From: Clostridia bacterium
GTDB taxonomy: Bacteria; Bacillota; Clostridia; Christensenellales; CAG-138
DNA: 64,000 bases
Direction of reading: 5' to 3'
Assembly (NCBI GenBank): GCA_017394835.1
Contig: JAFPXD010000003.1
Coordinates: 78,221 to 142,220, forward strand
Part shown: positions 6,259 through 32,987 of the stretch, in pieces
Position numbering within the stretch: position 1 is the stretch's first letter
Layout: each line of letters opens with the position of its first letter
Position numbers and translations under genes: made by a program
Notes under the pieces: model-generated
Databases searched by the model: none
Told to the model about the DNA's origin: nothing
The model's input: only the letters and a program-made list of their open reading frames with translations

Positions 6259-6347
6259 GGAGAGATGGCCGAGTGGTTTAAGGCGCCGGTCTTGAAAACC
6301 GGTGATGTCGCAAGGCACCGGGGGTTCAAATCCCTCTCTCTCCGCCA
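6259..6347 (+). tRNA. tRNA-Ser (anticodon UGA), CCA encoded
   Basis: Acceptor stem GGAGAGA/TCTCTCC, anticodon loop CUUGAAA, long variable arm, T-arm GGGGG-TTCAAAT-CCCTC, 3' GCCA. Confidence 0.92.
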
Positions 6348-6356: not shown

Positions 6357-6448
6357 GGAGAAGTACCCAAGAGGTCGAAGGGGCTCCCCTGCTAAGGGAG
6401 TAGGATCTGCGAAGGGTCGCCAGGGTTCAAATCCCTGCTTCTCCGCCA
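6357..6448 (+). tRNA. tRNA-Ser (anticodon GCU), CCA encoded
   Basis: Acceptor stem GGAGAAG/CTTCTCC, anticodon stem CTCCC/GGGAG with loop CUGCUAA, long variable arm, T-arm CAGGG-TTCAAAT-CCCTG, 3' GCCA. Confidence 0.92.
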
Positions 6449-7124: not shown

Positions 7125-7255
7125 TCTGTCATTCCCTGCGGCTTTCAATTCTACATCCTCTCTTTTTGCACAGATCCTTTTGTTTTTTTCCCTTCTGTGC
7201 TATAATTATTTTACGGCGCCGTTCCGCCGCAACCAATATGAAAAAGGAGAAAAAC

Positions 7256-7906
7256 ATGAAAAGGTTTATCGCACTGCTTATCAGCGTTCTTTTGATCGCC
7301 TTGCTGCCCAATATGATCCTTGCCGAGGCGCAGTCCGAGCCCAAGGATGAGCTCATTCCCATCCACGAGGTTTATATAATGGGCTTCCGTCCCGCCGTTG
7401 CGGGCTCCACGCCGGAATTCGCCGATCCGCTTTTCACGTATGAGGGCGTATTCGATATTTACTCCCACGTCTATTCCTACTGGCATGACAATACGGAAGG
7501 ACACGATATGTTCGAAGAGCAGGTACCCTTCGTGATCGATCATGAATACAGCGAGGGATGCATGATCGCCGCTGGCGACGGCTATTATTTCGCGGAAGAC
7601 TGTGTTTTCTACATCAACGGGCACGCGGAATTCGTCGATTTTGTCATGCCGCATCAGTATTTCGATAACTGCGTATATGTTCAGTCGATCGCCTTCCCCT
7701 GCTATGAGCAGTACGTGCTCGGCGATATAAACGGTTCCGGCGCCATCGAAAGCGAAGACGCGCTCCTCGCGTTCCGCAGCGCAATGGGCCTTGGCACGTT
7801 CACCGAGGAGCAGGCTTTCATAGGCGACGTCAACTTCAGCGGCAGCGTGACCTCATCGGACGCCTTGAACATCCTCCGCGCCGCGCTTGGTATGATAGAG
7901 CTCTGA
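7256..7906 (+). CDS. Secreted dockerin-containing protein with an uncharacterised N-terminal domain
   Basis: ATG at 7256 lies 6 nt after AGGAG. Signal peptide MKRFIALLISVLLIALLPNMILAEA. C-terminal type I dockerin duplicated Ca-binding repeats (GDINGSGAIESEDAL, GDVNFSGSVTSSDAL). An extended -10 TGCTATAAT is at 7198-7206. Confidence 0.8.
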   Translation: MKRFIALLISVLLIALLPNMILAEAQSEPKDELIPIHEVYIMGFRPAVAGSTPEFADPLFTYEGVFDIYSHVYSYWHDNTEGHDMFEEQVPFVIDHEYSEGCMIAAGDGYYFAEDCVFYINGHAEFVDFVMPHQYFDNCVYVQSIAFPCYEQYVLGDINGSGAIESEDALLAFRSAMGLGTFTEEQAFIGDVNFSGSVTSSDALNILRAALGMIEL

Positions 7907-8025: not shown

Positions 8026-8067
8026 AAACTGTAATTCGAATTTGAGAAAACTGTAATTCGAATTTGA
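8026..8067 (+). promoter_or_regulatory. Tandem 20-nt direct repeats (candidate operator or activator sites) abutting the -35 element
   Basis: AAACTGTAATTCGAATTTGA occurs at 8026-8045 and again at 8048-8067, a 22-nt period. Each copy contains the palindrome AATTCGAATT. Confidence 0.5.
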
Positions 8068-8076: not shown

Positions 8077-8105
8077 TTGCAATATGGCATGGCATCGTTT
8101 ATAAT
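8077..8105 (+). promoter_or_regulatory. Sigma-A type promoter of the hydrolase/GNAT island
   Basis: TTGCAA (8077-8082), 17-nt spacer, TATAAT (8100-8105). It is followed by a non-coding leader of about 420 nt. Confidence 0.55.
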
Positions 8106-8529
8106 AGGATTTAGGCCAAACGAGCCTGCGCCGCGCTCCCCAAGGAGCGCGAATGATCAGAAAGGGGATCGACCGATGTTTTTTATCGCATTATGACCTG
8201 TGCGTCAATACCCAAGTATTGACGGCGTGCAGCCGGAGTTTCACAAGAAGGGACAGAGCCGTGAAAACAAATCGCATACATTGCGTTATTTGTGATGAAC
8301 GAGCTTGATTTCTATACCCGGAAAGCTGCACACAGATCGTTTTGCGGCAAAGAGCATAGTCGGCCCATATGGGCGATCCCGCTTCCGAAAATGAGCGGAT
8401 CATACCTACGTTTGATTTTGTGCAGGAGCATTTCGCTTTTCATACAAATCGACCGCGGATCGGCAATCGCTTTGCCCGGTCCGATTTTTATATATAAACT
8501 CACGTGTTTTACAAGGAGAAACAATCATT

Positions 8530-9900
8530 ATGGATAAGAAATCATTGATGGAAAAACTGGCCCGCGCGGCCTATGAAAAGGGCGGCTTCAACGGCGCGTG
8601 GCTTTACGCCGAGAACGGCGAGATCGTATCAAAGGGTGCTTACGGCTTCCGCGACCCCGAAAACACTCTCACGATAGAGGAGGATTCGATATTCCAGCTG
8701 GCGTCCGTGACAAAGCAGTTCACGGCGGCGGCGGTAATGCTGACTGTGCGCGAGGGGAAGCTCGGCCTTGATGACGAGATATTAAAGTTCTTTCCGGAGC
8801 TTGAGAAATACAAGGGCGTGACGGTGCGCCATCTTTTGACCCACACGAGCGGCATCCCCGATTACTTCGACGATATGGATTGGTTCATCGATCTCTGGAA
8901 GAAGGAGAACCGCGTGCCTTCGGGCGCGGAGATACCGCGCTTCCTTCTCGAAACGGAGGCGGAGCCCTACGGCGCGCCGGGCGAGACGTTCCAGTATTCC
9001 AACACCGGCTACAATCTTTTGGCGGAGATTGTCGAGAAGGTCTCCGGAACGCCGTTTGAGGAGTTCCTTAAGAAGAACGTTTTCGAGCCCGCGGGCATGG
9101 AAAATACCCGCTGCTGCCATATCCGCCGCGACGGCGTTCCCTTCGATAACTACGCTCGCGCGACGGTCATCGAGGACGATAAACTCGTCGCCGACGTGGA
9201 TTCCGAGGATTACCGCGACGTGACCGCGTTCGACGGCCTGAACGGCGACGACTACGTTTTCACCAACATCTTCGATATGTTCAAATGGGACCGTGCCCTG
9301 CGCGAGGGCAAGGTCATCACGCTCGAGGAGCAGAAACTGATGTACACTCCCGGGAAGCTCAATAACGGCGAGAACGCCGGCTTTGAAGGCGATGAGGGCT
9401 ACGGCTTCGGCTGGTGCGTCAAAAACGACGAAAAGCTCGGCCTCGTAGTCAGCCACTCCGGCGGCATGCCCGGCGTCGGTACATTGTTCGAGCGGTTCAT
9501 CGACGCGGACAAGATGCTCGTCATTCTCACCAACCGCGACTGGGTCGACGCCAGAGCCTATATGAGCTTTGAAGACGGCGTCAGGGGCATGGCGCACGGC
9601 AGGGAGCCCGAGCCCATCCGCGCCGTCGAGGATATAGCGCTCAAGGATCCCGACAAGTCCAACTGGGAGAGCTTCTGCGGAAAATACGAGCATCCCGAGG
9701 ACGAGGATTTCATCATCGACGAGGTCTATATGAAGGACGGCGAGCTTTATGCAAAGGCCATCGACGGCGACGGCGACGATCTCGAATTCATGCTCTACCC
9801 CATAGGGGAGAACGAGTTCGGAAGGAAACGCGGCATGATAAAGCTGACCTTCGGCGAGGATAACGTTACTTACGGCGGGAATACCTGCAAAAAAGATTAA
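8530..9900 (+). CDS. Beta-lactamase-fold serine hydrolase (class C / DD-peptidase / esterase family) with a conserved C-terminal module
   Basis: SxxK motif ASVTKQF, YSNTGY (YxN) and HSGG (box III-like). No signal peptide. The last 85 aa or so (WESFCGKYE...LYPIGENEFGRK...) recur on three other proteins in the island. Confidence 0.85.
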   Translation: MDKKSLMEKLARAAYEKGGFNGAWLYAENGEIVSKGAYGFRDPENTLTIEEDSIFQLASVTKQFTAAAVMLTVREGKLGLDDEILKFFPELEKYKGVTVRHLLTHTSGIPDYFDDMDWFIDLWKKENRVPSGAEIPRFLLETEAEPYGAPGETFQYSNTGYNLLAEIVEKVSGTPFEEFLKKNVFEPAGMENTRCCHIRRDGVPFDNYARATVIEDDKLVADVDSEDYRDVTAFDGLNGDDYVFTNIFDMFKWDRALREGKVITLEEQKLMYTPGKLNNGENAGFEGDEGYGFGWCVKNDEKLGLVVSHSGGMPGVGTLFERFIDADKMLVILTNRDWVDARAYMSFEDGVRGMAHGREPEPIRAVEDIALKDPDKSNWESFCGKYEHPEDEDFIIDEVYMKDGELYAKAIDGDGDDLEFMLYPIGENEFGRKRGMIKLTFGEDNVTYGGNTCKKD

Positions 9901-9920
9901 AGAATAAAAGGAGAATTATT

Positions 9921-10439
9921 ATGGAAAACTCAACCGATAACGTAAGACTTGTAAAGGTGGATACGGACAATCTTGATGAACTTATCAAGCTTACCGTAAA
10001 CGACTATCAGAAAAACTTTGTTGCAAGCAACATATACAGCCTTGCGGAGGCCTATGCCACCGTCGCCGAGGGCGGCTTTGCGCAGCCCTTCGGCATATAT
10101 GCCGACGAGGAGCCGGTAGGGTTCCTGATGATAGGCTATTTCAAAAAGGACGATGAGGATGACGACGAAGAGGAAACGCCCGACTACGTTTTCGAAAACT
10201 ACCTCTTCTGGCGTTTCATGATCGACAAGGAGTATCAGCAGAAGGGCTACGGCCGTGAGGCGCTGAAGCTCGCGCTCGATTACATCCGCACCTTCCCTGC
10301 CGGCCCCGCCGAATACTGCTGGCTTTCCTACGAGCCCGAGAACGAGGTGGCAAGAAAGCTTTACGCCTCCTTCGGCTTCGTTGAAGAGCCCGAAATGCCT
10401 AAAGGCTGGGACGAGATACCCGCTCTCCTGAAGCTGTAA
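9921..10439 (+). CDS. GNAT family N-acetyltransferase (paralog set 1)
   Basis: 172 aa. Acetyl-CoA binding region WRFMIDKEYQQKGYGREALKLAL and ARKLYASFGF. An acidic insert (KKDDEDDDEEE) is present. Confidence 0.85.
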   Translation: MENSTDNVRLVKVDTDNLDELIKLTVNDYQKNFVASNIYSLAEAYATVAEGGFAQPFGIYADEEPVGFLMIGYFKKDDEDDDEEETPDYVFENYLFWRFMIDKEYQQKGYGREALKLALDYIRTFPAGPAEYCWLSYEPENEVARKLYASFGFVEEPEMPKGWDEIPALLKL

Positions 10440-10478
10440 ACCGGCAAAAAGCTGTGAAGCAAAAACAAAAAAACGGAA

Positions 10479-11513
10479 GTGAGAAAAGTGATATTTGAAC
10501 TTAAAGATACGAAGAAGGCCGCACCGCTCTTTGAAGGGCTGCATGACTCGCTGATCCAGACCTGCCTCGACGGCATGCTTGGCGGCAAGATATACGTTAC
10601 CGATACGGAAGCGCCGCGCTCTGCGATGGCTTTCGTCGCGGAATTTGCGTATTTCGCAGGCGAGCCCGACCGCGAGCTTGCCGCGTTCAAGCCCAAGGGA
10701 TACGTCGGCATGGTGCCGCCGGATGAACGCTGGGCTCAGCTTATCGAGGAATACTGGCCGGACGCCGACAAGACGACCCGCTATGCGCTCAAAAAGGATG
10801 GGAAGTTCGACCGCAAAAAGCTCGAAAGCTTTATCGCCGCTATTCCGGACGGATATGAGCTTAAAAGGATCGACGGCGATATCTACGATATGCTGATCAA
10901 GGACGAGGATTTCGACGACAGCGTCAGCCATTTCGAATCCAAGGAACAGTACCTTGATATGGGGCGAGGCTTCGTCATAATGAAGGACGGCGAAATCGTT
11001 TCCGCCGCCTCGAGCTACACCGTTTACAGCAAGGGCCTGGATATTCAGATCGACACGGCAAAGGAAGAGAGACGCAAGGGCTTGGCGAGCGTTGCCGGAG
11101 CGGCGCTGATCCTCTCATGCATGGACGACGGGCTTGCCCCAAGATGGGATGCGGCAAATACGGATTCGCTGCATCTTGCCGAAAAGCTCGGTTTTGAATT
11201 CAGCCATGAGTACCTCTGCTATTGGGTGGACGCGATATTCGACCGCGTTATCAAGGATCCGGACAGGTCCCTTTGGGATTCCTTCTGCGGCCGCTACGAG
11301 ATGGAAAACGAGAGCCGTAAAGTATTCGAGATCCTTTTGAAGGACGGCGATCTGTATTGCGCGTTTTCCGGCAAGGACGGCGATCCGTTGGAGCTTAAGC
11401 TTTTCCCCGTCGGAGAGAACGTCTTCGGCTTCATGTGGGCGGACGATGAGATCGTTTTTAAGGACGGCGCGTTGATCGTCAACAATATCAAATGCAATAG
11501 AACGAAAGACTGA
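10479..11513 (+). CDS. Two-part protein: ZmaR-like GNAT acetyltransferase fused to the island's C-terminal module
   Basis: GNAT core DIQIDTAKEERRKGLASVAGAALI...HLAEKLGF in the long-N-terminus GNAT_acetyltran architecture. The C-terminus LWDSFCGRYE...LFPVGENVFG is homologous to the hydrolase tails. The GTG start is uncertain (10479 or 10488). Confidence 0.7.
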   Translation: MRKVIFELKDTKKAAPLFEGLHDSLIQTCLDGMLGGKIYVTDTEAPRSAMAFVAEFAYFAGEPDRELAAFKPKGYVGMVPPDERWAQLIEEYWPDADKTTRYALKKDGKFDRKKLESFIAAIPDGYELKRIDGDIYDMLIKDEDFDDSVSHFESKEQYLDMGRGFVIMKDGEIVSAASSYTVYSKGLDIQIDTAKEERRKGLASVAGAALILSCMDDGLAPRWDAANTDSLHLAEKLGFEFSHEYLCYWVDAIFDRVIKDPDRSLWDSFCGRYEMENESRKVFEILLKDGDLYCAFSGKDGDPLELKLFPVGENVFGFMWADDEIVFKDGALIVNNIKCNRTKD

Positions 11514-11542
11514 AAGCTGTGATAGGCAGCTTGGGAGGAAAT

Positions 11543-12022
11543 ATGATCCATCTTGAAAAACTGACTTATGATAACTTTTACGACGTATTTGGGCTCAAAG
11601 TGAAGAAGGTCCAGTACCCCTTCGTGGCGAGCAATATGTTCAGCGTCGCGGAGGCTTACGTCACCATGATAAACGGCGGGCACGTTTACCCATTCGCCAT
11701 CTATAACGACAAGAAGCTTGTGGGCTTTATCCAGCTCGCCTACGGCGAAAACGCCGATCAGGACGGCGTGAGCATGGAGAAGGACAGCTACGAGGTCTGG
11801 CGCTTCATGATCGACAAGCGCTATCAGGGCCGCGGCTACGGAAAGGAAGCGCTGAAACTGGCGCTGGATTTCATACGCACCTTCCCCGCGGGGCCGGCGG
11901 AGCTCTGCTGGATATCCTACGAGCCGGAGAACGAGACCGCAAGGAAGCTCTATGCCTCCTTCGGCTTCGAGGAGACCGGCGAAATGTGCGGCGATGAGAT
12001 CGTCGCGGTACTTAAACTATGA
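11543..12022 (+). CDS. GNAT family N-acetyltransferase (paralog of 9921..10439)
   Basis: ATG at 11543 after GGGAGG. WRFMIDKRYQGRGYGKEALKLALDFIRTFPAGPAELCWISYEPENETARKLYASFGF is near-identical in motif order to the 9921 product. Confidence 0.85.
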   Translation: MIHLEKLTYDNFYDVFGLKVKKVQYPFVASNMFSVAEAYVTMINGGHVYPFAIYNDKKLVGFIQLAYGENADQDGVSMEKDSYEVWRFMIDKRYQGRGYGKEALKLALDFIRTFPAGPAELCWISYEPENETARKLYASFGFEETGEMCGDEIVAVLKL

Positions 12023-12040
12023 TCATTAAGGAGAAATATT

Positions 12041-13750
12041 ATGAAATTTTCGGAAATGCCTTATGAAAGGCCCGACGTTGAGGAGATGAAAAAGAGCATC
12101 CGCGCTTTCACGGAAAGGCTCAAAAACGCCGCGAGCTATGAAGAAGCGCGCGAGGTATTCCTCGAATACGATAAACAGTACAAGAAGGACGACGCGCCCA
12201 TAACCCTCGCCTACATCCGCCAGTCGATAGACACGCGTGATGAGTTCTATAACGCGGAAAAGGAATTCTGGGACGAGAACCTTCCCGAGATAGAGGAATA
12301 CGAGCAGGAGTGGATAGAGGCGCTGGTAGAAAGTCCCTTCCGCGCGGAGTTCGCCGCTGAGTTCGGCGACCTCATGTTCGTCAAGGCGGAGATGGAGAAA
12401 AAGACCTTCTCGCCCGCGATAATCGAGGATCTGCAGAAGGAGAACGAGCTCGTCAGCGAATACGACGATCTCATTGCCTCCGCGCAGATACCATTCGAGG
12501 GCGGCGTCTACACGCTCTCGCAGCTCTGGCCCTTTGAAAGCGACCCCGACGACGAAAAAAGGCTCGCCGCCAACATCGCCGACGGCAAATGGTACGCGGA
12601 AAACGGGCAGCGCCTTGACGAGATCTACGACGAGCTCGTGCGTCTTCGCGACGGCATGGGCAAGAAGTTAGGCTTCGGCGGCTATACCAAGCTCGGCTAT
12701 TACCGAATGGGGCGCAACTGCTACACGGAGGAGGACGTAAAGAGCTTCCGCGAGGCGGTTATAAAATACGTCGTTCCCATTGCGGAGCGCTTGAAGCGCC
12801 AGCAGGCGGAAAGGATAGGCAGGCCGTATCCCATGTATTGGGCGGATCAGGGTCTTAAGTTCCGCAAGGGCAATCCCCGCCCCGCGGGCGACGCGGATTA
12901 CATACTCGGGCAGGGAAAGAAGTTCTATGACGAACTCTCCCCCGAAACGAGCGAGTTCTTCCACACGATGCTTGACGAGGAGCTCATGGACGTGCTCTCC
13001 ACCGAGGGCAAGCAGTCCGGCGGCTATGAGAACAGTATCGATTATTATGAGCGCCCGTTCATTTTCGCCAATTTCAACGGCACTCAGGGCGACGTGGAGG
13101 TCGTCACGCACGAGGCGGGGCACGCCTTCGCCTACTGGATGAACCGCAAGCGCGTTCCCTTCACAAGCTGCGAGCCCTCCGCCGAGGCGTGCGAGGTGCA
13201 TTCAATGAGCATGGAGTTCTTCGGCTGGAGGAATGCCGAGGGCTTCTTCGGAGCGGACGCCGATAAGTTCAAATACAGCCATCTTGCCTCCGCGCTGACC
13301 TTCATCCCCTACGGCACGCTCGTGGATCATTTCCAGCATATCGTCTATGAAAAGCCCGAAATGACCCCTGCCGAGCGCCACGCGGAGTGGAAGCGCCTGA
13401 GCGCGATCTATATGCCATGGGAAAGGCTCTCCTGTGACGATCCCGTGCCCTTCTACCCCGAAGGCAGGGTCTGGCAGAGCCAGGAGCATATCTATCAGGC
13501 GCCTTTCTACTATATCGATTACTGCCTCGCGCAGACGGTCGCTCTGGAATTCTGGGCGCTGCTGCAGAAGGATGAAAAGGAAGCATGGGAGCGCTATATG
13601 GACTATACCAAGCAGGGCGGCACCCGCACCTTCACGGAACTGCTGAAGCACGCGGGCCTCAAGACCCCCTTTGACGAGGAGTGCTTAAAGGAGGTCTGCG
13701 AGACCGCCGATAAGTGGCTCGACGAATTCGATCTTACCGGGATCGAATAA
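12041..13750 (+). CDS. pepF: M3B family oligoendopeptidase F
   Basis: 569 aa with the zinc motif HEAGHAF in the expected context. The length and C-terminal helical domain are typical of PepF. Confidence 0.85.
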   Translation: MKFSEMPYERPDVEEMKKSIRAFTERLKNAASYEEAREVFLEYDKQYKKDDAPITLAYIRQSIDTRDEFYNAEKEFWDENLPEIEEYEQEWIEALVESPFRAEFAAEFGDLMFVKAEMEKKTFSPAIIEDLQKENELVSEYDDLIASAQIPFEGGVYTLSQLWPFESDPDDEKRLAANIADGKWYAENGQRLDEIYDELVRLRDGMGKKLGFGGYTKLGYYRMGRNCYTEEDVKSFREAVIKYVVPIAERLKRQQAERIGRPYPMYWADQGLKFRKGNPRPAGDADYILGQGKKFYDELSPETSEFFHTMLDEELMDVLSTEGKQSGGYENSIDYYERPFIFANFNGTQGDVEVVTHEAGHAFAYWMNRKRVPFTSCEPSAEACEVHSMSMEFFGWRNAEGFFGADADKFKYSHLASALTFIPYGTLVDHFQHIVYEKPEMTPAERHAEWKRLSAIYMPWERLSCDDPVPFYPEGRVWQSQEHIYQAPFYYIDYCLAQTVALEFWALLQKDEKEAWERYMDYTKQGGTRTFTELLKHAGLKTPFDEECLKEVCETADKWLDEFDLTGIE

Positions 13751-13784
13751 ATATGAACATTACCGAAAAATAAAGGAATTTATT

Positions 13785-15524
13785 ATGGAAACCATAACCT
13801 TAAGACCCATAACCGAAGAAAACCGCGAGGCGGTGCTCGCGCTCACGGTAAGAGACGATCAGCCCTTCGTCGCGCCGAACGACGCTTCATTGGAGGAGGC
13901 GGAAAAGGCCAACGCCGAAAACCCCGGCTATGCACGCCCGTTCGGCATCTACGCCGATGATAAGCTCGTCGGCTTCTGCATGTTCGCCTTCGATCCCGAG
14001 GACGAGGATGAGGAGGATCGCTACTGGCTCTGGCGCTTCATGATCGATAAAAACGAGCAGGGTAAGGGCTACGGCCAGGCGGCGCTTTCCGAGATCATCA
14101 ATTATTTCAAGGAAAACGACGCGGACAGGCTCTACCTTTCCACAGAGCCCGAGAACGAGCTCGGCCTGCACGTTTACCACAAGGCGGGCTTCCGCGAGAC
14201 CGGCATGATCAGCTACGGCGAGGCCGTTATGATGCGCATGCTGAAGGGGCCGAACAGGCTCCTCAAGGACTTTTACGGCTTTGATATCGACGGGCCTCTC
14301 GGCATCAAGGGAAAGAAGGGCTACGGCGTCAGCATGGCGGCCAGCTGCGAAGACGGCGTGATCAACACCTACTGCTCCGGCAGCGGAAGGTTCGGGCAGG
14401 ATTTCCCCGTGAACCCCGACATGCTGTTCCAGGCGGGCTCAGTTTCAAAGCCGGCCTTCGCCGCGACCGTGATGCGCTACGTCGACAAGGGCAAGATAGA
14501 CCTTGACGCGGATATTTCGGGAATCGTTCCGGAGTTCGTCAAGAAGGGCCCCGTTACTTTCTCCGCGCTGCTTTCGCACACCGCGGGCTACAACGTGCAC
14601 GGCTTCCCCGGCTACCGCGCGGATCATGCGCCGCTTTCGCTGGAGGACGTATTGAACGGAAAGGGCGTCACTCCGCGGCTCCGCAGGATAAAGCCCTACG
14701 GCAAGCAGCACGTTTATTCCGGCGGCGGCATCACTTTAGCGCAGCTCGCCTTTGAGCGCATCACGGGCACGACCCTGCGCGAGGCATTCCAAAAGGAGGT
14801 CGCGGAGCCTCTGGGCTTAAAGCGCACCGGCTTCTTCCAGCCCCTTGACGAGGAGCTCGTCAAGAACGCCGCGTTCGGCGGAAAACTCGGCATAAAGGAG
14901 GATCCCGAGCACGGGTATCATTACTATCCCGAGCACGCCGCGGCGGGCCTGTGGTCAACGCCCACCGAACTCGTGAAGATAGGCCTCGCGCTCTCGAAGA
15001 GCTACCGCAGGGGCGGCTTCCTCAAAAAGAAGACCGCGCGCCGCATGCTGACCCCCGTTATGGACAGTTACGGCCTCTGCGTTTACAACCTCAGAGGCGA
15101 TATCGGCGAGCACTCCGGCTGGAACGAGGGCTTTGTGACCGAGTGGATGTTCTCACTTCGCGAGGATATGTGCATAGCCTCCATGCTCAACCACTCCACG
15201 GATGATCTCGATTGGGGTCAGACCAAGCTCGCGCTCAAGCTGTTCCAGGACGGTGAGGAATACCTTGCCGGGGAACCGAGCAAAAGGGCGCTGAATTCCT
15301 ATTGCGGAAAGTACTCGCATCCCGATGACGCGGAATTCTTCGTCGAAGAGGTATTCATGAAGGACGATGAGCTGTATGCGAGATTCAAAGACGCCGACGA
15401 GGAATTCGAGAACAGGCTCTATCGCATAGAGAAGAAGACCTTCGGCCGCATCGGAGGTTTTACAAAGCTCGTATTCGATGAGGACGGCGCTTACGTGAAC
15501 GGCGTCACGTGCAAAAAGCTGTGA
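13785..15524 (+). CDS. Fusion protein: GNAT acetyltransferase + beta-lactamase-fold serine hydrolase + shared C-terminal module
   Basis: The N-terminal 150 aa or so are paralogous to the 9921 and 11543 GNATs (WRFMIDKNEQGKGYGQAAL). Then come SxxK (GSVSKPAF), a YSGGG motif at the position of the hydrolase YxN element, and the tail NSYCGKYSHPDD...LYRIEKKTFGR. Confidence 0.85.
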   Translation: METITLRPITEENREAVLALTVRDDQPFVAPNDASLEEAEKANAENPGYARPFGIYADDKLVGFCMFAFDPEDEDEEDRYWLWRFMIDKNEQGKGYGQAALSEIINYFKENDADRLYLSTEPENELGLHVYHKAGFRETGMISYGEAVMMRMLKGPNRLLKDFYGFDIDGPLGIKGKKGYGVSMAASCEDGVINTYCSGSGRFGQDFPVNPDMLFQAGSVSKPAFAATVMRYVDKGKIDLDADISGIVPEFVKKGPVTFSALLSHTAGYNVHGFPGYRADHAPLSLEDVLNGKGVTPRLRRIKPYGKQHVYSGGGITLAQLAFERITGTTLREAFQKEVAEPLGLKRTGFFQPLDEELVKNAAFGGKLGIKEDPEHGYHYYPEHAAAGLWSTPTELVKIGLALSKSYRRGGFLKKKTARRMLTPVMDSYGLCVYNLRGDIGEHSGWNEGFVTEWMFSLREDMCIASMLNHSTDDLDWGQTKLALKLFQDGEEYLAGEPSKRALNSYCGKYSHPDDAEFFVEEVFMKDDELYARFKDADEEFENRLYRIEKKTFGRIGGFTKLVFDEDGAYVNGVTCKKL

Positions 15525-15559
15525 TACTGTGAAATAGACCGAATATAAGGAGAAATATC

Positions 15560-16924
15560 ATGGAAAAGAAAGAATCAATGGAAGAGCTCGCCCGCAAAGC
15601 CTATGAAAAGGGCGGCTTCAACGGCGTTTGGCTTTACGCCGAAAACGGCGAGATAGTGTCGAAGGGCGCTTACGGCTGGGTGGACGCGGAGAACACCATA
15701 CCCATGCGCGAGGATACCATATTCGAGATGGCGTCCATAACGAAGATGTTCACCGCCACGGCGATAATGCTCCTCGTGCGCGATGGCAAGCTCTCCGTCG
15801 ACGACGAGTACGTGAAGTACTTCCCCGAATTCCCCTATGAGGGCGTGACGATCAAGCATCTTCTCACCCATACGAGCGGCATGCCCGAGGACCTCGGGAC
15901 CGACGACTGGGTGGAACCCATTTGGGAAAACGAGCACAGGATCCCGCCCTGCAGCGAGATCATCCGCTTCCTGATCGACAGCGGCAGGGAGCTCGACTGC
16001 GCCCCCGGCGAAAGGTTCGAGTACAGCGACATCCACTACTGCCTGCTGGCAAATCTAGTTGAAAAGCTCTCCGGCGAGAAGTTCGAGGACTACCTCAAAA
16101 AGAACGTGCTGGAGCCCTCCGGCATGAAGGATTCCGCCATACTCCACACCCGCAGGGACGGCAGGCCCTCGAGCCGCATCGCCCGCAATATGGTGCTGGA
16201 GGACGGTGAATACGTGCCCTCCGACCTTTCGAAGGACGCCTCCTATGTGTGCGGTTCGGACGGCCTCAACGGCTGCGATTATCTCTACACCACGGTATTC
16301 GACATGCTCGCGTGGGACCGCGCGCTGCGTGAAGAGAAGGTGCTCACCCGTGAGGAGCAGGCGGTCATGTTCACGCCCGTGAAGCTGAATTCGGGCGAAG
16401 ACTACGCCGACGAGGACGGCGACGGCTACGGCTTCGGCTGGGGCGTCAAGCGGGATGAGGAGCACGGCCTCATCGTCTCCCATTCCGGCGGCATGCCCGG
16501 CCTTAATACCTGGTTCGAGCGCTACGTCGATGAGGATAAGGTTCTGATATTCTTCTTCAACCGCGACTTTACGGATATGCGAGCGTGCGGCGGCTTCTGG
16601 GATGGCATGATGGCGATCGCCAACGACGATGAGCCCGAACCCCTCGTCACGATCGAGGACGTTATGGTAAAGGATCCCGATAGGTCGGATTGGGAGAGCT
16701 TCTGCGGCAAGTACGAGCGCCCCGAGGACGAGGAATTCATGATCGACGAGGTCTTCATGAAGGACGGCGAGCTTTACGCCAACGCGGTCATCGAAGGCGA
16801 CGAGGAGACCTTCCGCCTCTATCCCCTCTCCGAGAACGAGTTCGGCAGGAAGGGCGGCTTCTTAAAGCTGGCCTTCGCCGAAGGCTGCATCAAGTACGAC
16901 GAGAATACCTGCAAAAAGCTGTAA
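15560..16924 (+). CDS. Beta-lactamase-fold serine hydrolase, close paralog of 8530..9900
   Basis: SxxK ASITKMF and HSGGMPG. Near-identical N-terminus (ARKAYEKGGFNGVWLYAENGEIVSKGAYG) and shared C-terminal module. Confidence 0.85.
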   Translation: MEKKESMEELARKAYEKGGFNGVWLYAENGEIVSKGAYGWVDAENTIPMREDTIFEMASITKMFTATAIMLLVRDGKLSVDDEYVKYFPEFPYEGVTIKHLLTHTSGMPEDLGTDDWVEPIWENEHRIPPCSEIIRFLIDSGRELDCAPGERFEYSDIHYCLLANLVEKLSGEKFEDYLKKNVLEPSGMKDSAILHTRRDGRPSSRIARNMVLEDGEYVPSDLSKDASYVCGSDGLNGCDYLYTTVFDMLAWDRALREEKVLTREEQAVMFTPVKLNSGEDYADEDGDGYGFGWGVKRDEEHGLIVSHSGGMPGLNTWFERYVDEDKVLIFFFNRDFTDMRACGGFWDGMMAIANDDEPEPLVTIEDVMVKDPDRSDWESFCGKYERPEDEEFMIDEVFMKDGELYANAVIEGDEETFRLYPLSENEFGRKGGFLKLAFAEGCIKYDENTCKKL

Positions 16925-17026: not shown

Positions 17027-17075
17027 GAAACCTCTTTTGTCTACCAGAGCAAGAGAGGTTTTCTTGTTGTTTTTG
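17027..17075 (+). terminator. Probable terminator ending the hydrolase/GNAT operon
   Basis: AACCTCTT...AAGAGAGGTT stem followed by a T-rich run (TTCTTGTTGTTTTT). Confidence 0.55.
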
Positions 17076-17130: not shown

Positions 17131-17619
17131 ATGATCGAGATAAAAGAAACAACGATCAAAGATATTGATAATGTTCAAAGACTTTGGGCTGACGGCGATG
17201 TTATGCGGTTTGTTGGATTCCCCGATGGATTGCACCAAACAACTGAGGAAATGAAAGGTTGGTTTCGGTGGATCGAATCCAATCGGCCGGTTCTGAATCA
17301 CTACTCGATATTTGAAGACGGGAACTACTGCGGAGAATCTTTTTATGAGATCGATGCAGCGCATCGAAGCGCCGCTCTGGACATAAAACTGTTTGGATTT
17401 GCACGGGGACGTGGAATTGCAGCGGCAGGGCTCTCCCATGCGATCAGGGAAGCGTTCCTGAACGGCGCGGAGACCGTATGGGTCGATCCGAATCCGGGAA
17501 ACATGAAAGCAATCGCATTGTATGAGAGGCTTGGCTTTCAGCAGAAAGACTTTCCTGAGTACCTGATTTCCGAGGATCAGGAGCAAATCTCAATCTATAT
17601 GGAACTTCGCAAAAACTGA
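17131..17619 (+). CDS. GNAT family N-acetyltransferase (visibly AT-richer cassette)
   Basis: 162 aa. GNAT motif A region FARGRGIAAAGLSHAIREAF and ALYERLGF. The composition is clearly AT-richer than its neighbours by eye. Confidence 0.8.
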   Translation: MIEIKETTIKDIDNVQRLWADGDVMRFVGFPDGLHQTTEEMKGWFRWIESNRPVLNHYSIFEDGNYCGESFYEIDAAHRSAALDIKLFGFARGRGIAAAGLSHAIREAFLNGAETVWVDPNPGNMKAIALYERLGFQQKDFPEYLISEDQEQISIYMELRKN

Positions 17620-17814: not shown

Positions 17815-17857
17815 GGGCTCCGGAGCGGTCAACCGGCTGCTTCGGAGCCCTTTTTTT
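17815..17857 (+). terminator. Orphan intrinsic terminator
   Basis: GGGCTCCGGAGCGGTCAACCGGCTGCTTCGGAGCCC followed by TTTTTTT. Confidence 0.6.
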
Positions 17858-17973
17858 GTGCCCGCAAAAACGAAAACAGGTGTACTTTTTGTTCTTTTAT
17901 TGCGTCAAGAAGAATGAGTAAAAAGGTACATGGCAAGAGGACTTGAACCTGAAATGACTGGCCGCGTGTTATA

Positions 17974-18585
17974 ATGAAAGAACAAAATAGTTACGGAGGC
18001 AACAAAAATGGCAAGCAGCACATGTACTCCGGCGGCGGCATCACGCTGGCACAGCTCGCCTTTGAGCGTATCACCGGCACTACCCTCTGCGAGGCCTTCC
18101 AAAAGGAGGTCGCCGAGCCTCTGGGGCTGAAACACACCGGCTTTTTCCAGCCGCTGGACGAAGAGCTGGTTTCCAACGCGGCGTTCGGCTTCAGACTGGC
18201 GCAGAAGGAGGACCCTGCCCACGGGTATCACTATTATCCGGAGCATGCGGCGGCGGGCCTTTGGACCACGCCGACGGAGCTGGTCAAGATCGGCCTCGAG
18301 CTTTCCAGGAGCTATCGCAAAGGCGGCCTCCTCAAAAAGAAGACCGCGCGGCGCATGATGACGCCTGTCATGGATGACTACGGCCTCTGCCTCGATGTTT
18401 GGGAATCGGAAGCGCGCAAAGACAGCGTCGCCGGTCACGACGGAGAGAACTGGGGTTTTCTGACCAGCTGGGTCTTCTCCCGCAAGAAAGACATCTGCGT
18501 TGCCGTGATGTACAACAACGTCACGGAAGCAGCCGACGAAGCGATGAACGGCATCGCCTGCGAGATCTACAGGAACGCAAAATAA
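17974..18585 (+). pseudogene. 5'-truncated remnant of a beta-lactamase-fold hydrolase (paralog of 13785..15524)
   Basis: Homology starts abruptly at GKQH(M/V)YSGGGITLAQLAFERITGTTL, aligning with residue 306 or so of the fusion protein. It lacks the SxxK nucleophile region and the C-terminal module. Confidence 0.7.
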
Positions 18586-18698: not shown

Positions 18699-19115
18699 AT
18701 GAAAATGGAACCTTACAGGCATACCGTTCAATACTATGAAACGGATAAGATGGGAATAGTGCATCACTCGAATTATATCCGCTGGATGGAGGAAGCGCGC
18801 ATAGACTTTTTGAGGCGCATCGGATGGAGCTTCGAAAGGCTCGAAGCGGAGGGGCTCGTCTCCCCCGTCACCGCCGTCGAATGCAGGTACAGGGCAAGCG
18901 CCGTATTCCCCGACGAGGTCGCAATAAGCGTTCGCGTCGGCGAGCTTAAGGGCGCGGTCATGCGGTTCGATTACGTCATGACCGTCGGGGATAGGACAGT
19001 CTGCGAAGGCCGCACAGAGCATTGCTTCCTTGACGGAAATGGGAGAATAGTCCGCATGAACAGGGCTTATCCCGGGTTTTACGAAAGGCTCCGCTCCGAG
19101 ATGGAGACCGAATGA
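18699..19115 (+). CDS. Acyl-CoA thioesterase, 4HBT/YbgC hotdog family
   Basis: MKMEPYRHTVQYYETDKMGIVHHSNYIRWMEEAR carries the catalytic Asp context of YbgC-like thioesterases. Confidence 0.8.
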   Translation: MKMEPYRHTVQYYETDKMGIVHHSNYIRWMEEARIDFLRRIGWSFERLEAEGLVSPVTAVECRYRASAVFPDEVAISVRVGELKGAVMRFDYVMTVGDRTVCEGRTEHCFLDGNGRIVRMNRAYPGFYERLRSEMETE

Positions 19116-19146: not shown

Positions 19147-19680
19147 ATGAAGCTCATTGAACCCACGCCGGAATATGCCGATCAGATAGCGGCTTACCGC
19201 AGGGCCTTTCTTGAATACGGGGGCTCCATGGACGGGTGCGGCCCGCTGAGGCGGTATGAGGATCCTATGGAATGGCTCGCGTTTGTCGAAGCCATGAAAA
19301 AGCCCGAAACCACTCCGGAAGGGCTCGTCCCCGCGACGCAGCTCATTTACGTGCATGAGGAGGACGGGAAGATCGCCGGGATGATCCAGATACGGCATTA
19401 TTTCAATGAATACCTTGAAAAATACGCGGGGCACATTGGGTATTCCGTGGCCCCCGACGAGCGGCGCAGGGGTCATGCGACCGCGATGCTTCGCCTTGCT
19501 CTGCCCATATGCCGCGAGCTTGGGATAGAAAAGGCGCTCGTTTGCTGTCTTGTGGAAAACGAGGCCAGCCGAAGGACCATCCTCAACAACGGCGGCGTTT
19601 ATGAATCCACCGTTTACGAACCGGAACGCGACATGCGCCTTGAAAGATACTGGATCGATACCCGCAGCGCAGAGCGATAA
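19147..19680 (+). CDS. GNAT family acetyltransferase (COG3981-like)
   Basis: 177 aa with GHIGYSVAPDERRRGHATAMLRLAL. Confidence 0.75.
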   Translation: MKLIEPTPEYADQIAAYRRAFLEYGGSMDGCGPLRRYEDPMEWLAFVEAMKKPETTPEGLVPATQLIYVHEEDGKIAGMIQIRHYFNEYLEKYAGHIGYSVAPDERRRGHATAMLRLALPICRELGIEKALVCCLVENEASRRTILNNGGVYESTVYEPERDMRLERYWIDTRSAER

Positions 19681-30248: not shown

Positions 30249-30648
30249 CGCCAACAAGAGGATGCAGACGGCCGTTGTGACGGCGCTTATCGTTTCCGCG
30301 CTCATAGTCGCGGCGGCATGCGCGCTGCCCGCCTTCTGCATGGGATCGCTGAACGGCGAATGCCTCCCCCTGCTCGAAAGCGCACGCGAAGCGGCCATTG
30401 CAGGCGACTTCGGCACGGCGCACGAGCTTCTTGCCCGCGCGGCGAAGATCGAGGAAGCGCACCTTCCGCATCTTAAGCTTTTTTTCGATCATAACAGCAC
30501 GGCCGCGCTCGACCTTTCGGTGAGAACGGCCTGCGATCTTGCGATCACAGGCGAAGCTTCACAGCTCATTGCGGAGATAGATTCCGCAATAGGCAGCCTG
30601 CGGTTCCTGAACGGAGTCACGCAGAGCGGCCCCGGCGAGTTACTGTGA
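30238..30648 (+). CDS. DUF4363-like small membrane-anchored protein
   Basis: 136 aa. Overlaps the DUF421 gene by 11 nt. N-terminal TM followed by a helical domain. DUF421-DUF4363 pairing is common in spore formers. The assignment is tentative. Confidence 0.5.
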   Translation: MKADANKRMQTAVVTALIVSALIVAAACALPAFCMGSLNGECLPLLESAREAAIAGDFGTAHELLARAAKIEEAHLPHLKLFFDHNSTAALDLSVRTACDLAITGEASQLIAEIDSAIGSLRFLNGVTQSGPGELL

Positions 30649-32166
30649 TCGGCGGGAACGGCGGCGGAGCATCCTTTTTACGACGCTTATGAGATACTTA
30701 ACGTCATTTCCGTAAAACAGGAGCGATGAAACGGCTGTGATTGCGGCTGCGATCCCGAACACGACGAAGCCTTCCGCTATCCAGCCCATCCAGCCTTCGG
30801 AGAACGCGATCCGGTCCTCCGCGAAAAGCGATACGAATATTATGACGGCGCCTGTCAGAACGAGCCAAATGAAGCGGAGTACGATCTCCTTTATGCTCCT
30901 TTCGAGAATGTGCTTTGAAACGAAAGCGGCGTATTGGCAGGTCCTGAAAAGATTTGCCGCAAGCGTGCCGAGTATGACGCCCTCTATCCCTATCAGGTTT
31001 ATAAGCACCAGCGAAACGGCGAGGTTGAGCAGCGCCTCAGCCATTGCGCCGTTTTTTGTTTCGCGGTAGAAGCCCGCCGCCTGCACGAGCATCAAATAGG
31101 GTTGCCTTATGCAATAGAACGCTTCCGCCGCGGTGATGAGCACCGCAAGCAGCGGCCTTATGTACTCTATATCCGTTACGCCGTAAGTATAGCGCCTGAG
31201 AAAAGGCAGTATGAGCAAACCAACGCAGGAGAAAACCACCGCGGTGAATGTGAACATGACGTATTCGTAGGCGCGGAAATTCCGTTTTAGGGACTCCATC
31301 TCCCCCCTCGCCCACATATTGCCGAACGCCGCCTCAATGCCGCTCGTCACCACCTGCATGAGCTGTTTGATCTTGCCCACTACAAGGTAATAGACCGTAT
31401 AGACCGAGATCACCTTCGCATCGGTGAAAAGGGTCAGGAGAACGAGATCGACGTTGTTGTGGATGAGGTTTGCTATCGAATGGAACGCCACGGCTCCGCG
31501 TTCTTTTATGCCCGTATTGTCCGGCTCGCACTTGGAGCTGAGCTGATACTTCCTGCGCACGTAGGCGTTCATTACAGCGGGAGTGATAAAGAACACGATC
31601 GAGCTGACAAGCTTGACCTCATAAACGGAACGGCCGAGCTTTATGAGGAGCGCCGTCAGCAAAGTATTGACTATTATCTTTACGGTATCGAGCGCATAGA
31701 CGATATAGCTGGCTTGATCCGCCTGCAGAAGGGTCTGGTTTGAAATCCCGAAGAAATACTGCGCGAAAGTGCCTATGCTCACTATCGCGATTATTGCGGC
31801 GTTCTGAGTTTTGTTGAGATCGTTATGCGAAATATAGGGATAGACTAAGCACAGTACCGCCGCGTAAGCTATAACGCAGAGAGCGACCTTTCTCATATAG
31901 ATCTTGGTCGCCTTCATTATGGCGCTCGTGCCTTCCCTGTCATCTTTGCCGAGAGTCTTATAAAGCGCCACCCTCGTCGCTCCGGTTATGCCGAGGGTCA
32001 ATACGCTTATCATGGAAAGGAAATGAGCGGCCGAGTTTATGACGCCGTTATACGTTGAACCGAACGCTTCGAGGATGAGCCTCGGCGTGATAAGGCCGCA
32101 GATAACAGACACGATCTGATAGATCGCGGCGAGCACCATATTCTTGAATGCTTTTTCGGTCCTCAT
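30640..32166 (-). CDS. wzx: Wzx-type oligosaccharide flippase (MOP superfamily)
   Basis: 508 aa with about 14 TM helices. N-terminus KNMVLAAIYQIVSVICGLITPRLILEAFGS is typical of polysaccharide biosynthesis flippases. Last gene of the glycan locus. Confidence 0.8.
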   Translation of the reverse strand: MRTEKAFKNMVLAAIYQIVSVICGLITPRLILEAFGSTYNGVINSAAHFLSMISVLTLGITGATRVALYKTLGKDDREGTSAIMKATKIYMRKVALCVIAYAAVLCLVYPYISHNDLNKTQNAAIIAIVSIGTFAQYFFGISNQTLLQADQASYIVYALDTVKIIVNTLLTALLIKLGRSVYEVKLVSSIVFFITPAVMNAYVRRKYQLSSKCEPDNTGIKERGAVAFHSIANLIHNNVDLVLLTLFTDAKVISVYTVYYLVVGKIKQLMQVVTSGIEAAFGNMWARGEMESLKRNFRAYEYVMFTFTAVVFSCVGLLILPFLRRYTYGVTDIEYIRPLLAVLITAAEAFYCIRQPYLMLVQAAGFYRETKNGAMAEALLNLAVSLVLINLIGIEGVILGTLAANLFRTCQYAAFVSKHILERSIKEIVLRFIWLVLTGAVIIFVSLFAEDRIAFSEGWMGWIAEGFVVFGIAAAITAVSSLLFYGNDVKYLISVVKRMLRRRSRRSQ

Positions 32167-32180
32167 CGGCAGATTCGCTT

Positions 32181-32987
32181 TCAGTCAAGCTTTACGGTAA
32201 AGGAAGGCCCGCAAAGCCGCCCCTCGATCCTTTTGTATTCTTCCGTGCTTTTGAGCTTTGCATCCGCGCCGAGCTCTTCAAGCAGGCGCAGGCACGAATA
32301 CGCGTCGTTATAAGTCCTCAAGCCGCCGTTCTGCACGAAATAAGTGCCGGGACGCGCATTGTAATCTATCTCGTTTTCCCTTCCCATTATGCGGCTGATC
32401 CCGAAATCGAGCAGTATCGGGCCTTTCGATCCGTACATGAGATTGCCCTTGTGAATATCCGCATGGACGATCCCGAAGCGTTCAAGCTCCTCCAGTATTG
32501 AAACCATATCGCGCAGGACGGCCTTCCCGCCGCAGTCAAGCGAGACCTCATGCAGACCTTCCACATAGTTTATCGCAAGCATTGCGGTCTCTTTCCCAAA
32601 GCTTTCCGTGCCCGCCGCAAGCTTGGGAAAAAGCTCCGATCCGCTGTTTATGTATTCAAGCAGCCTCAGCTCGTTCACCACGGTAGCGTCCCTTGATCCG
32701 ACCTTGATAAAGCAGCGCGCACCTTCCTTGACCGCTGTATAATAACGCCTTTCGGCGCCGTCTTTGCCTTTGCCGATGCGCCACGCTTCGATCATCACGG
32801 GCTTTGTTTTAGAAAAACCGAGTTCATCAAATCGAGCCAGCTCCTCTGCGCGAAGCCCCCTGCGATACTTGGAATAATAGGCGAAATGCCCGTCGCGCAG
32901 CGGTGTGACTATCTTGCTCTTGATCTTTTTGAGCGGGCGGTAGATCGCGCCGCACCGTTTTATGATGCTTTTGATCCCGTTGATCAT
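32181..32987 (-). CDS. Protein-kinase-like fold protein (WaaP/Kdo-kinase or choline/aminoglycoside kinase-like)
   Basis: Catalytic loop IVHADIHKGN (HxDxxxxN) followed by LLDFGIS (DFG). Confidence 0.6.
   Translation of the reverse strand: MINGIKSIIKRCGAIYRPLKKIKSKIVTPLRDGHFAYYSKYRRGLRAEELARFDELGFSKTKPVMIEAWRIGKGKDGAERRYYTAVKEGARCFIKVGSRDATVVNELRLLEYINSGSELFPKLAAGTESFGKETAMLAINYVEGLHEVSLDCGGKAVLRDMVSILEELERFGIVHADIHKGNLMYGSKGPILLDFGISRIMGRENEIDYNARPGTYFVQNGGLRTYNDAYSCLRLLEELGADAKLKSTEEYKRIEGRLCGPSFTVKLD

Follow-up and report, generated by a model that had tools for sequence, protein, structure and literature searches.

A recurrent, multiply fused cluster of S12 hydrolases, GNAT acetyltransferases and an M3 peptidase behind candidate attenuator leaders in rumen Clostridia

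Gene arrangement of the cluster

We analyzed a stretch of 64,000 nucleotides (nt) from the genome of a Clostridia bacterium (GenBank assembly GCA_017394835.1, contig JAFPXD010000003.1, positions 78,221 to 142,220 of the forward strand; in the following called the window), in which genes for S12-type serine hydrolases of the beta-lactamase fold, N-acetyltransferases of the GNAT family and an M3 peptidase lie next to each other. The cluster consists of seven open reading frames (ORFs) from position 8530 to 16924, all on the plus strand and separated by gaps of 18–48 nt. An initial annotation, made from the sequence alone, had described these closely spaced genes; the coordinates it gave for all seven were confirmed, and a scan of the products with Pfam and NCBIfam profiles agreed with the hydrolase, GNAT, ZmaR-like, M3 and GNAT-hydrolase fusion contents it had assigned. 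The genes are:

8530..9900, plus strand: H1, S12/beta-lactamase-fold serine hydrolase with C-terminal domain (PF00144, E 2.6e-59)
9921..10439, plus strand: G1, small GNAT N-acetyltransferase of the family abbreviated sG below (Pfam, QQKGYG motif)
10479..11513, plus strand: Z, ZmaR/PamZ-family tandem GNAT with C-terminal domain (PF12746, E 1.7e-73)
11543..12022, plus strand: G2, small GNAT, paralogue of G1 (Pfam, sequence comparison)
12041..13750, plus strand: M3, M3B oligoendopeptidase of the Pz-peptidase type (Peptidase_M3, TIGR02289)
13785..15524, plus strand: F, fusion of an sG-type GNAT, an S12 hydrolase and the C-terminal domain
15560..16924, plus strand: H2, paralogue of H1 with C-terminal domain (PF00144, E 6.8e-56)

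The intergenic gaps measure, in order, 20, 39, 5, 18, 34 and 35 nt. The third widens to 29 nt if G2 starts at the ATG at 11543 and not at the GTG at 11519 given in the ORF list; the ATG has the better ribosome-binding site and agrees with a metagenome gene call. For Z, gene callers place the start at the GTG at 10488. Ribosome-binding sites are good for most of the seven genes, and the motifs are intact for all three enzyme classes.

Hydrolases, acetyltransferases and the M3 peptidase

The hydrolases H1, H2 and F score 201, 190 and 122 bits against PF00144 (cut-off 27). H1 and H2 are 58% identical over their full length, close paralogues as initially proposed. The hydrolase domain of the fusion shares only 26–29% identity with them and by this comparison is a separate subfamily. 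Within F, the GNAT part spans amino acids (aa) 1–160, the S12 hydrolase aa ~170–490 and the C-terminal domain aa ~497–579, with the Pfam matches at aa 4–140 (GNAT) and aa 203–473 (PF00144). The three catalytic motifs read SVTK59, YSN156 and HSG309 in H1, SITK59, YSD155 and HSG308 in H2, and SVSK (S219xxK222), Y311-S-G and HSG (H443-x-G445) in F, with H2 and F deviating from YxN in the second motif. The F motifs S219xxK222, Y311-S-G and H443-x-G445, together with the QGKGYG of its GNAT part, are invariant in 13 homologues of 72–87% identity.

The closest solved relative of H1 is Pab87 (2QMI, E 3.9e-31, aa 28–331); ClbP is matched at E 5e-16. Scores of 59, 52 and 25 bits against the class C beta-lactamase model NF033085 (cut-off 415) fall far short. 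When the model of the whole fusion was compared by Foldseek, the top matches were the penicillin-binding-protein-fold enzymes Lip3, SurE, Pab87, IS11 and Ulm16, in alignments of ~440–480 columns, which is long enough to extend into the C-terminal region. The closest characterized hydrolase relatives are D-stereoselective or DL-peptidases and similar enzymes (Pab87, alkaline D-peptidase, D-amino-acid amidase, Lip3). A crude hydropathy scan of the cluster proteins gave no hydrophobic N-termini or transmembrane-like segments (maximum Kyte-Doolittle mean over 19 residues <1.5), in line with the absence of signal peptides noted earlier, and from this a cytoplasmic location is predicted.

G1 and G2 are 56% identical, and the N-terminus of the fusion shares 40–42% identity with both (E 1e-26 to 1e-30), which bears out the view of the initial annotation that the small GNAT units are paralogous. 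These three, Z and two downstream GNATs (G3 and G4, see below) all pass the cut-offs of PF00583 or PF13302 and carry the acetyl-CoA motif [QR]xxGx[GA]. The closest solved relatives of the small GNATs are the Enterococcus faecalis spermine/spermidine acetyltransferases 2FL4 and 9DSB (E 5e-9), and Foldseek aligned 152 columns at 30% identity with polyamine acetyltransferases of the PmvE/SSAT type. The GNATs of the cluster stay far below the cut-offs of the SpeG and PaiA equivalogs, and polyamine activity of the small GNATs is a lead only. Z matches PF12746 over profile positions 2–243 of 243 with 247.7 bits (cut-off 26), and its solved relatives are 3G3S (E 1.3e-53) and PamZ (7B3A, E 1.8e-16).

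The peptidase had been labeled PepF, wrongly: it passes TIGR02289, 'M3_not_pepF' (544 bits, cut-off 442), whereas its 81 bits against the pepF equivalog TIGR00181 fall below the cut-off of 490. Its zinc motif HExxH reads HEAGH at aa 357, and it matches Geobacillus Pz-peptidase structures (3AHM, E 4e-160); another solved relative is 2H1J (E 9e-160).

A C-terminal domain common to the hydrolases and the ZmaR-like GNAT

A homologous module of ~90 aa, missed by the initial annotation as was the conserved leader described below, ends four of the proteins:

H1, aa 363–455: C domain
H2, aa 364–453: C domain
F, aa 497–578: C domain
Z, aa 250–341: C domain

The copies of H1 and Z match each other at E 2e-16. 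Two cysteines, a Gly-x-Tyr and several hydrophobic positions are invariant; the cysteines lie in CGKY near the start and in TCKK at the very C-terminus in 12 of 12 aligned copies. In a protein of predicted cytoplasmic location, such cysteines hint at a metal site or a pair that is sensitive to redox state. A profile of the domain found only 104 representatives among 1.84 billion protein clusters, and its full-length matches have the lengths expected for Z followed by the C domain (~340 aa), hydrolase followed by the C domain (~457 aa) and the fusion (578 aa). By this distribution, the C domain is restricted to this clade and these enzyme families.

AlphaFold models of the domain show a helix followed by eight strands, a predicted beta-barrel (pLDDT, the predicted local confidence score, 79–93). 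In Foldseek searches with the isolated domain, lipocalins and the D-aminopeptidase of O. anthropi came first with a sub-significant best E of 0.14 and TM scores of 0.4–0.5, which suggests a lipocalin-like fold at the level of the models. There was a weak match to DUF3471 below its cut-off (25 versus 29 bits) and no match among PDB sequences.

Conservation of the fusion and its neighborhood

Relatives of the fusion were counted in GTDB contigs with one genome per species, in which at least 280 genomic places encode one. We kept 80 loci, used 79 of them in the neighborhood counts, and classified their ORFs with hidden Markov models made from the window's own proteins. The 80 loci come nearly all from metagenome-assembled genomes of the rumen or the ruminant intestine (Oscillospiraceae, Clostridia, Candidatus Limivicinus and similar), and the C domain is absent from the fusion in roughly half of them. 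More than 120 metagenomic clusters at ≥72% identity retain both domains, annotated only as 'GNAT family N-acetyltransferase' or 'CubicO group peptidase/RimJ'.

Genes of the same families crowd around the fusion. Their density is 3.38 per 10 kb at a distance of 0–2 kb, 0.74 at 2–4 kb and ~0.1 at 6–10 kb, an enrichment of ~30-fold within 2 kb, and the closest family genes lie on the fusion strand in 92 of 94 cases. At least one partner is found within 4 kb in 60 of the 79 loci: a further hydrolase in 42, a small GNAT in 23, a ZmaR-like GNAT in 15 and an M3 peptidase in 11. Among the 19 loci lacking a partner, several end at a contig edge and one has a solo fusion beside rpoBC.

For the layouts we use sG for the small GNAT, H for the hydrolase, C for the C-terminal domain, Z for the ZmaR-like GNAT and G3 for the GNAT type encoded at 17131. 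The gene order is permuted (M3-H-sG-Z-sG-F; sG-H-H-sG-Z-sG; GNAT-GNAT then H-H-H; sG-H; loci from hydrolase homologues), and besides the sG-H-C fusion at least six further covalent layouts occur. The fused proteins are:

sG-H-C and sG-H: the fusion family itself
GNAT-sG-H-C: 740 aa
G3-H-C: 617–622 aa, in loci L026 and L040
sG-Z-C: 512 aa
Z-H-C: 739 aa, also in P0332, a cluster of 57 members
GNAT-GNAT-M3: 858 aa, in L005/L006 at 14205–16781
sG-sG

An apparent 866-aa fusion in L012 was rejected as an ORF-calling artefact, its N-terminal extension overlapping a separate RsgA gene. As a side observation, the GNAT-GNAT-M3 cluster in L005/L006 is followed by a gene pair for a methyltransferase and an extracytoplasmic function sigma factor.

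The conserved fusion, the same-strand enrichment and the multiple fusion layouts make functional coupling of the hydrolase, GNAT and M3 peptidase genes well supported by these sequence comparisons, and the fact that the three enzyme classes are covalently joined in several independent ways is strong Rosetta-stone evidence that they share a pathway. The initial annotation had drawn this type of argument from the one fusion in the window. The argument is strengthened by the distribution of the fusion, the clustering around it and the further fusions, including the one with M3, and both the hydrolase-GNAT pairing and the fusion recur in other genomes. A literature search for a fusion or cluster of GNAT and beta-lactamase-fold genes returned nothing relevant, the fusion was on no record of a plasmid collection, and the defence models of PADLOC gave no meaningful match.

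Three types of leaders precede the cluster genes

The gap of 540 nt upstream of H1 contains the following features:

8077..8105, plus strand: promoter-like site of the sigma-70 type (TTGCAA, 17 nt, TATAAT; 10 of 12 matches)
8106..8529, plus strand: structured 5′ leader, type A (closed multi-helix domain, then terminator, then ribosome-binding site of H1)
8176..8196, plus strand: mini-ORF within the type A leader encoding MFFIAL followed by a stop codon, with GAAAGGGGA upstream at 8160–8168
8456..8490, plus strand: hairpin resembling an intrinsic terminator, followed by a U run (11–12 pairs, −16 kcal/mol)

Type A leaders are ~340–400 nt long. The copy in the window is 71–75% identical to those in L023 and in eight metagenome loci, and every copy lies directly 5′ of a cluster-family gene (H-C, H, sG-H or sG-sG). 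The TATAAT of the promoter is invariant in nine of nine homologues. With a 20-mer probe from the leader we obtained 13 metagenome matches, of which five were chance matches in unrelated high-GC coding DNA and were discarded; more distant homologues were sought with nhmmer profiles. A protein-coding origin, for instance from a 57-codon ORF starting at 8154, was rejected: its ATG is not conserved, and the many indels of 1–2 nt in the alignment mark the leader as non-coding.

The single-sequence fold of the type A leader is more stable than that of shuffled sequences (z = −6.2). The consensus structure has 13 helices and 122 pairs, and 97.2% of its cells are paired. Double changes occur in six pairs, compared with 0–2 in slid controls and 2.7 on average in shuffles; the covariation support is modest, limited by the column identity of 86%. 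The mini-ORF has a strong Shine-Dalgarno sequence, and its ATG is invariant in the alignment (A5). Other type A leaders encode MIFTA followed by a stop, and in the window a change from TAG to TTA extends the reading frame to the next TGA. All 12 pairs of the terminator hairpin, which ends 27 nt before the ribosome-binding site of H1, are kept in every homologue, including a change from U.G to C-G in the stem (helix 13).

Just 5′ of the −35 element of the promoter lie two 20-nt direct repeats AAACTGTAATTCGAATTTGA (8026–8067, plus strand, 22 nt apart), each of which contains the perfect palindrome AATTCGAATT. They may be an operator or activator site; they are not kept in the leader homologue of L023.

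Two other leader types were identified. Type C, located ahead of the cluster in seven further loci, is distantly related to type A and has a strong Shine-Dalgarno sequence and ORFs of 6–8 codons (MSTISK, MATTAR and MIVRFLTV, each followed by a stop). Type B is unrelated to type A in sequence and occurs in 13 loci with 12 distinct leaders. It contains the invariant element AAGAAAGCGAGGT and an upstream ORF (uORF) of 19–23 codons with ATG, TTG or GTG in the start column, TGA or TAA in the stop column and a conserved (E)Y..(M)TS motif, and a strong terminator closes the leader. The Shine-Dalgarno sequence of type B, GCGAGGT, complements an invariant ACCTCGG within the uORF that is followed by a T run; this pairing could form a helix sequestering the Shine-Dalgarno sequence or a first terminator. 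The sites of type B, and the RsgA-type genes that follow it in four loci, are:

L104 5500–5760; L106 7195–7450; L009, L011, L012, L013, L021, L026, L040, L045, L058, L062: type B leader
L026 7096–8109: RsgA-type gene
L040 7079–8092: RsgA-type gene
L012 8444–9439: RsgA-type gene
L045 2657–4240: RsgA-type gene, with the RsgA domain fused to an N-terminal GNAT

The classified genes after leaders of types A, B and C always belong to the cluster families or encode this RsgA-type GTPase of the 30S subunit, which in the four loci comes first after the type B leader, ahead of the hydrolase and GNAT genes. We take this as a weak hint of a link to translation. Types A and B have the layout of a leader-peptide attenuator, with a promoter, a Shine-Dalgarno sequence and conserved short ORF, and an intrinsic terminator before the gene. 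In Rfam 15, type A had no match at E ≤ 1, types B and C had only sub-threshold matches of a terminator-like kind, and a search of the whole window found nothing relevant.

Downstream genes and surroundings

Further features were found downstream of H2:

17027..17072, plus strand: weak terminator-like hairpin 3′ of H2 (only four G-C pairs)
17131..17619, plus strand: G3, GNAT of a third subfamily
17815..17860, plus strand: strong intrinsic terminator 3′ of G3 (16 pairs, 11 of them G-C, T7)
17974..18585, plus strand: truncated hydrolase copy, likely a remnant of the hydrolase domain of the fusion
18705..19115, plus strand: thioesterase of the 4HBT fold (link to the system unproven)
19147..19680, plus strand: G4, GNAT of a fourth subfamily

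The related downstream genes of the initial annotation (GNATs at 17131 and 19147, hydrolase remnant, thioesterase) are therefore present. G3 probably belongs to the system because the same GNAT type is fused N-terminally to a hydrolase with C domain in two loci (L026 and L040). The ORF at 17974 corresponds to aa 306–491 of the fusion at 68% identity, without the SxxK nucleophile and the C domain, and no trace of the missing N-terminal part was found upstream of 17974. A GNAT of the G4 type is near the fusion in only two of 79 loci, which makes its link to the system weak.

Spacing and leader are consistent with a single operon, as had been proposed for the region from 8077 to ~17050. The proposed end fared less well: the hairpin at ~17050 is weak, and the operon may run on through G3 to the strong terminator at 17815.

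Copies of the identical locus in ruminant gut metagenomes are flanked by genes for a sigma factor, CarD, PIN-TRAM, dockerin, TrkAH and Rnf proteins. In the window, two adjoining tRNA genes (6259–6344 and 6357–6445, plus strand) lie between the PIN-TRAM gene and the gene for the dockerin protein (7166–7906). Farther away, a long series of minus-strand ORFs from ~30640 to 47008 has a cobalamin riboswitch upstream (47062–47266, minus strand, 88.7 bits).

Relation to known systems

Pab87 resembles the predicted architecture of the cluster hydrolases, in which a cytoplasmic domain with the fold of penicillin-recognizing proteins is followed by a helix and then a small C-terminal barrel. It is a D-stereoselective amino- and carboxypeptidase active on D-amino-acid peptides, and its authors proposed a role in the degradation of cell-wall debris (PMC2651629). 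Our C domain differs in lacking detectable sequence similarity to any solved structure and in occurring also on a ZmaR-like GNAT. In addition, GNATs are often joined to the hydrolase, an arrangement not described for CubicO proteins.

A pairing of a PF12746 GNAT with a beta-lactamase-fold peptidase, as seen here, is known from PamZ/ZmaR and the D-Asn-specific S12 peptidases PamJ, ZmaM and ClbP. PamZ acetylates exactly the N-terminal amine that PamJ would expose, and the PamZ authors point to comparable dual self-resistance in the case of zwittermicin, amicoumacin and edeine. Unlike those systems, the cluster in the window has no biosynthetic gene cluster, its hydrolases are predicted to be cytoplasmic, with neither a membrane nor an ABC-transporter part, and show low similarity to ClbP, and there are additional GNATs, an M3 peptidase and fusions.

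Acetyltransferase and hydrolase genes also lie side by side in the case of MccE, a RimL-like GNAT, and MccF, a serine peptidase, with the homology compared at the level of the GNAT superfamily. The two confer immunity to processed microcin C, independently neutralizing the toxic aminoacyl analogue that cytoplasmic peptidases free from the imported peptide. MccF belongs to S66 and the hydrolases here to S12, and there are no mcc genes in the cluster. M3 is a full-length match to Pz-peptidases A and B of Geobacillus collagenovorans (3AHM, 3AHN, 3AHO), from which it differs in its location among GNAT and S12 genes and, in some species, in its fusion to two GNAT domains. Among solved structures, the PmvE/SSAT polyamine acetyltransferases (2FL4, 9DSB) come closest to the small GNATs, at low similarity.

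The leaders share the order of promoter, Shine-Dalgarno sequence, short ORF, structured spacer, terminator and genes with the attenuators of erm, msrD, hflXr and ToiL-topAI-yjhQ. They differ from these in matching no Rfam family, and type A is unusually long and structured. There are well-documented cases of antibiotic-responsive genes under the control of short uORFs or leader peptides, among them the topAI-yjhQ operon, which contains a GNAT gene.

Possible function

Our leading reading, held tentatively and with a little less than even confidence, is that of an attenuator-controlled operon for an inducible cytoplasmic module that cleaves and acetylates unusual peptide-like compounds. Imported oligopeptide-like molecules would be cut by the M3B endopeptidase and also by the Pab87-like S12 hydrolases, a class that typically hydrolyses amide or ester bonds adjoining D- or non-proteinogenic residues. 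The freed amines would then be N-acetylated by the GNATs of the small SSAT/RimL-like, ZmaR/PamZ-like and G3 types, which would neutralize a harmful product or ready it for disposal, and the paralogues and fusions would probably span a range of related substrates. Expression would be held off by the leader with its very short translated ORF and intrinsic terminator, and released when translation of the mini-ORF is perturbed by a ribosome-targeting compound or a shortage of charged tRNA. We infer the substrates, the order of hydrolysis and acetylation, the protective purpose and the attenuation mechanism; a protective rather than nutritional purpose is favored slightly.

This reading is favored because the nearest characterized relatives agree with it and because of the precedent of PamZ and PamJ. 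The role put forward in the initial annotation, detoxification or salvage of a peptide-like or polyamine-like xenobiotic with acetylation of the liberated amine, is likewise hypothetical; it would have a precise analogue in the PamJ/PamZ and ZmaM/ZmaR pairs, and the short-ORF leader would suit inducible expression. The relatives in question are D- or DL-peptidases and amidases, a cytoplasmic oligopeptidase, and amine acetyltransferases of the PamZ/ZmaR and PmvE types, which inactivate cationic peptide antibiotics or polyamines.

Several observations weigh against it. The fusion does not strictly need its partners, since it also occurs alone, for example in L007 (10001–11737), where it adjoins rpoB-rpoC and has no partner genes within 10 kb. 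The cluster is not accompanied by any conserved substrate, transporter or regulator gene that would tie it to a particular compound. N-acetylation of the hydrolysis product is assumed; the GNATs might instead modify other molecules, or work ahead of hydrolysis. At a moderate pLDDT of 75.7, the fusion model gives no reliable reading of a channel between the domains. No antiterminator was found when the type A leader was folded with the mini-ORF region single-stranded, in which case the terminator hairpin persists, or in folds of sub-regions; switching may be kinetic or depend on a protein or ligand. Finally, Ile and Thr abound in the leader peptides, which would fit the sensing of amino-acid supply and hence a nutritional role.

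That nutritional alternative, in which D-amino-acid peptides from bacterial cell-wall debris, plentiful in the rumen, are salvaged, shortage of Ile, Thr or another amino acid induces the genes and the GNATs detoxify freed D-amino acids or diamines, is unlikely in our estimate and is the strongest of the competing explanations. It draws on the D-stereoselectivity and proposed cell-wall role of Pab87, the resemblance of M3 to a nutritional Pz-peptidase, the origin of nearly all loci from ruminant gut genomes, and leader peptides that resemble amino-acid attenuators such as thrL and ilvL. However, spending acetyl-CoA on several different GNATs is unusual in catabolism, and the neighborhood lacks a conserved gene for a peptide transporter, racemase or aminotransferase. 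The type B peptide is best conserved in Y..MTS, which does not repeat a single regulatory codon, and the RsgA-type GTPases that follow this leader are at odds with a nutritional role. Those GTPases, including the RsgA-GNAT fusion, would instead suit a role in translation or ribosome quality control, with RimI/J/L-like GNATs acetylating ribosomal or other proteins and the peptidases processing or degrading protein N-termini. The matches of the small GNATs to Acetyltransf_3 (RimJ/RimL type) and, weakly, to rimI models point the same way, as does control by a short translated uORF. Such a protein-directed function is nevertheless improbable: the rimI, rimJ and rimL equivalogs give scores that fall far short of their cut-offs (e.g., 35 versus 86 bits), RsgA occurs in only four of ~100 loci, and S12 and Pz-type M3 enzymes act on short peptides and small amides, not on folded proteins.

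It is very unlikely that the genes share no pathway, being members of abundant detoxification-type families gathered by tandem duplication and drift and acting on unrelated substrates. Gene order and content do vary strongly between species, the fusion can stand alone, and the truncated duplicate at 17974 speaks for ongoing duplication and decay. Chance gathering is opposed by the ~30-fold enrichment near the fusion, almost exclusively on the same strand, by at least seven different covalent fusions among the same families, which extend to the unrelated M3 peptidase, by a clade-specific C domain common to both hydrolases and a GNAT, and by shared leaders that precede whichever family gene comes first. 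A classical resistance island of a class C beta-lactamase with aminoglycoside or streptothricin acetyltransferases can be given very little credence. The superficial family matches to the class C model and to the models of these acetyltransferases are far below their cut-offs (59 versus 415 bits for bla_class_C and 16–20 versus 200–400 bits for the aminoglycoside ones), hydrolases lacking signal peptides cannot protect periplasmic or extracellular penicillin-binding proteins, neither plasmid records with the fusion nor defence-system matches turned up, and the surroundings are housekeeping genes (CarD, TrkAH, Rnf). Equally slight is the chance of biosynthetic tailoring, with the hydrolases working as cyclases or acyltransferases of the penicillin-binding-protein type, like SurE, Ulm16 or the macrolactin acyltransferase, together with the GNATs. 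SurE and Ulm16 are among the best Foldseek matches of the fusion, but these structural matches reflect the shared fold and C-terminal barrel and not a specific function; the window has no ORF of the size of a non-ribosomal peptide synthetase or polyketide synthase (the largest has 877 aa), and no megasynthase was seen in the related loci with gene tables.

A more far-reaching version of the cleave-and-acetylate module concerns the C domain. A C-terminal barrel is also carried by Lip3, SurE, IS11 and Ulm16. In Pab87, the C-terminal lipocalin domain builds an octameric cage (PMC2651629). As a speculation to which we give a low probability, the barrel could be a common docking module by which the S12 hydrolases, the fusion and Z would co-assemble into a Pab87-like, self-compartmentalized cage for cutting and acetylation, and the leaders would be new arrest-peptide or structured-RNA sensors that switch the cage on upon exposure to substrate, for example a ribosome-targeting peptide antibiotic of the rumen.

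Significance

The enzyme folds themselves are ordinary. As far as the literature and the family libraries show, the conserved, permuted and multiply fused S12-GNAT-M3 module appears to be undescribed, and the same appears to hold for the clade-specific C domain on hydrolases and a ZmaR-like GNAT (literature and Pfam) and for the two or three leader types (literature and Rfam). The practical importance is moderate for now, the organisms all being uncultured. The natural fusions provide ready predictions of which enzymes cooperate and are compact bifunctional enzymes for biochemistry, for instance, if our reading is right, as tools combining a D-selective peptidase with an acetyltransferase. The leaders add new candidate arrest peptides or translation-coupled regulatory RNAs, and identifying their inducer would point to the substrate. 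To our knowledge, the logic of cleaving and then acetylating has so far been known only from the self-resistance genes of antibiotic producers. If our reading is true, a large uncultured group of rumen Clostridia would hold a dedicated, inducible pathway that hydrolyses unusual peptide bonds and, coupled to this, N-acetylates the amine set free.

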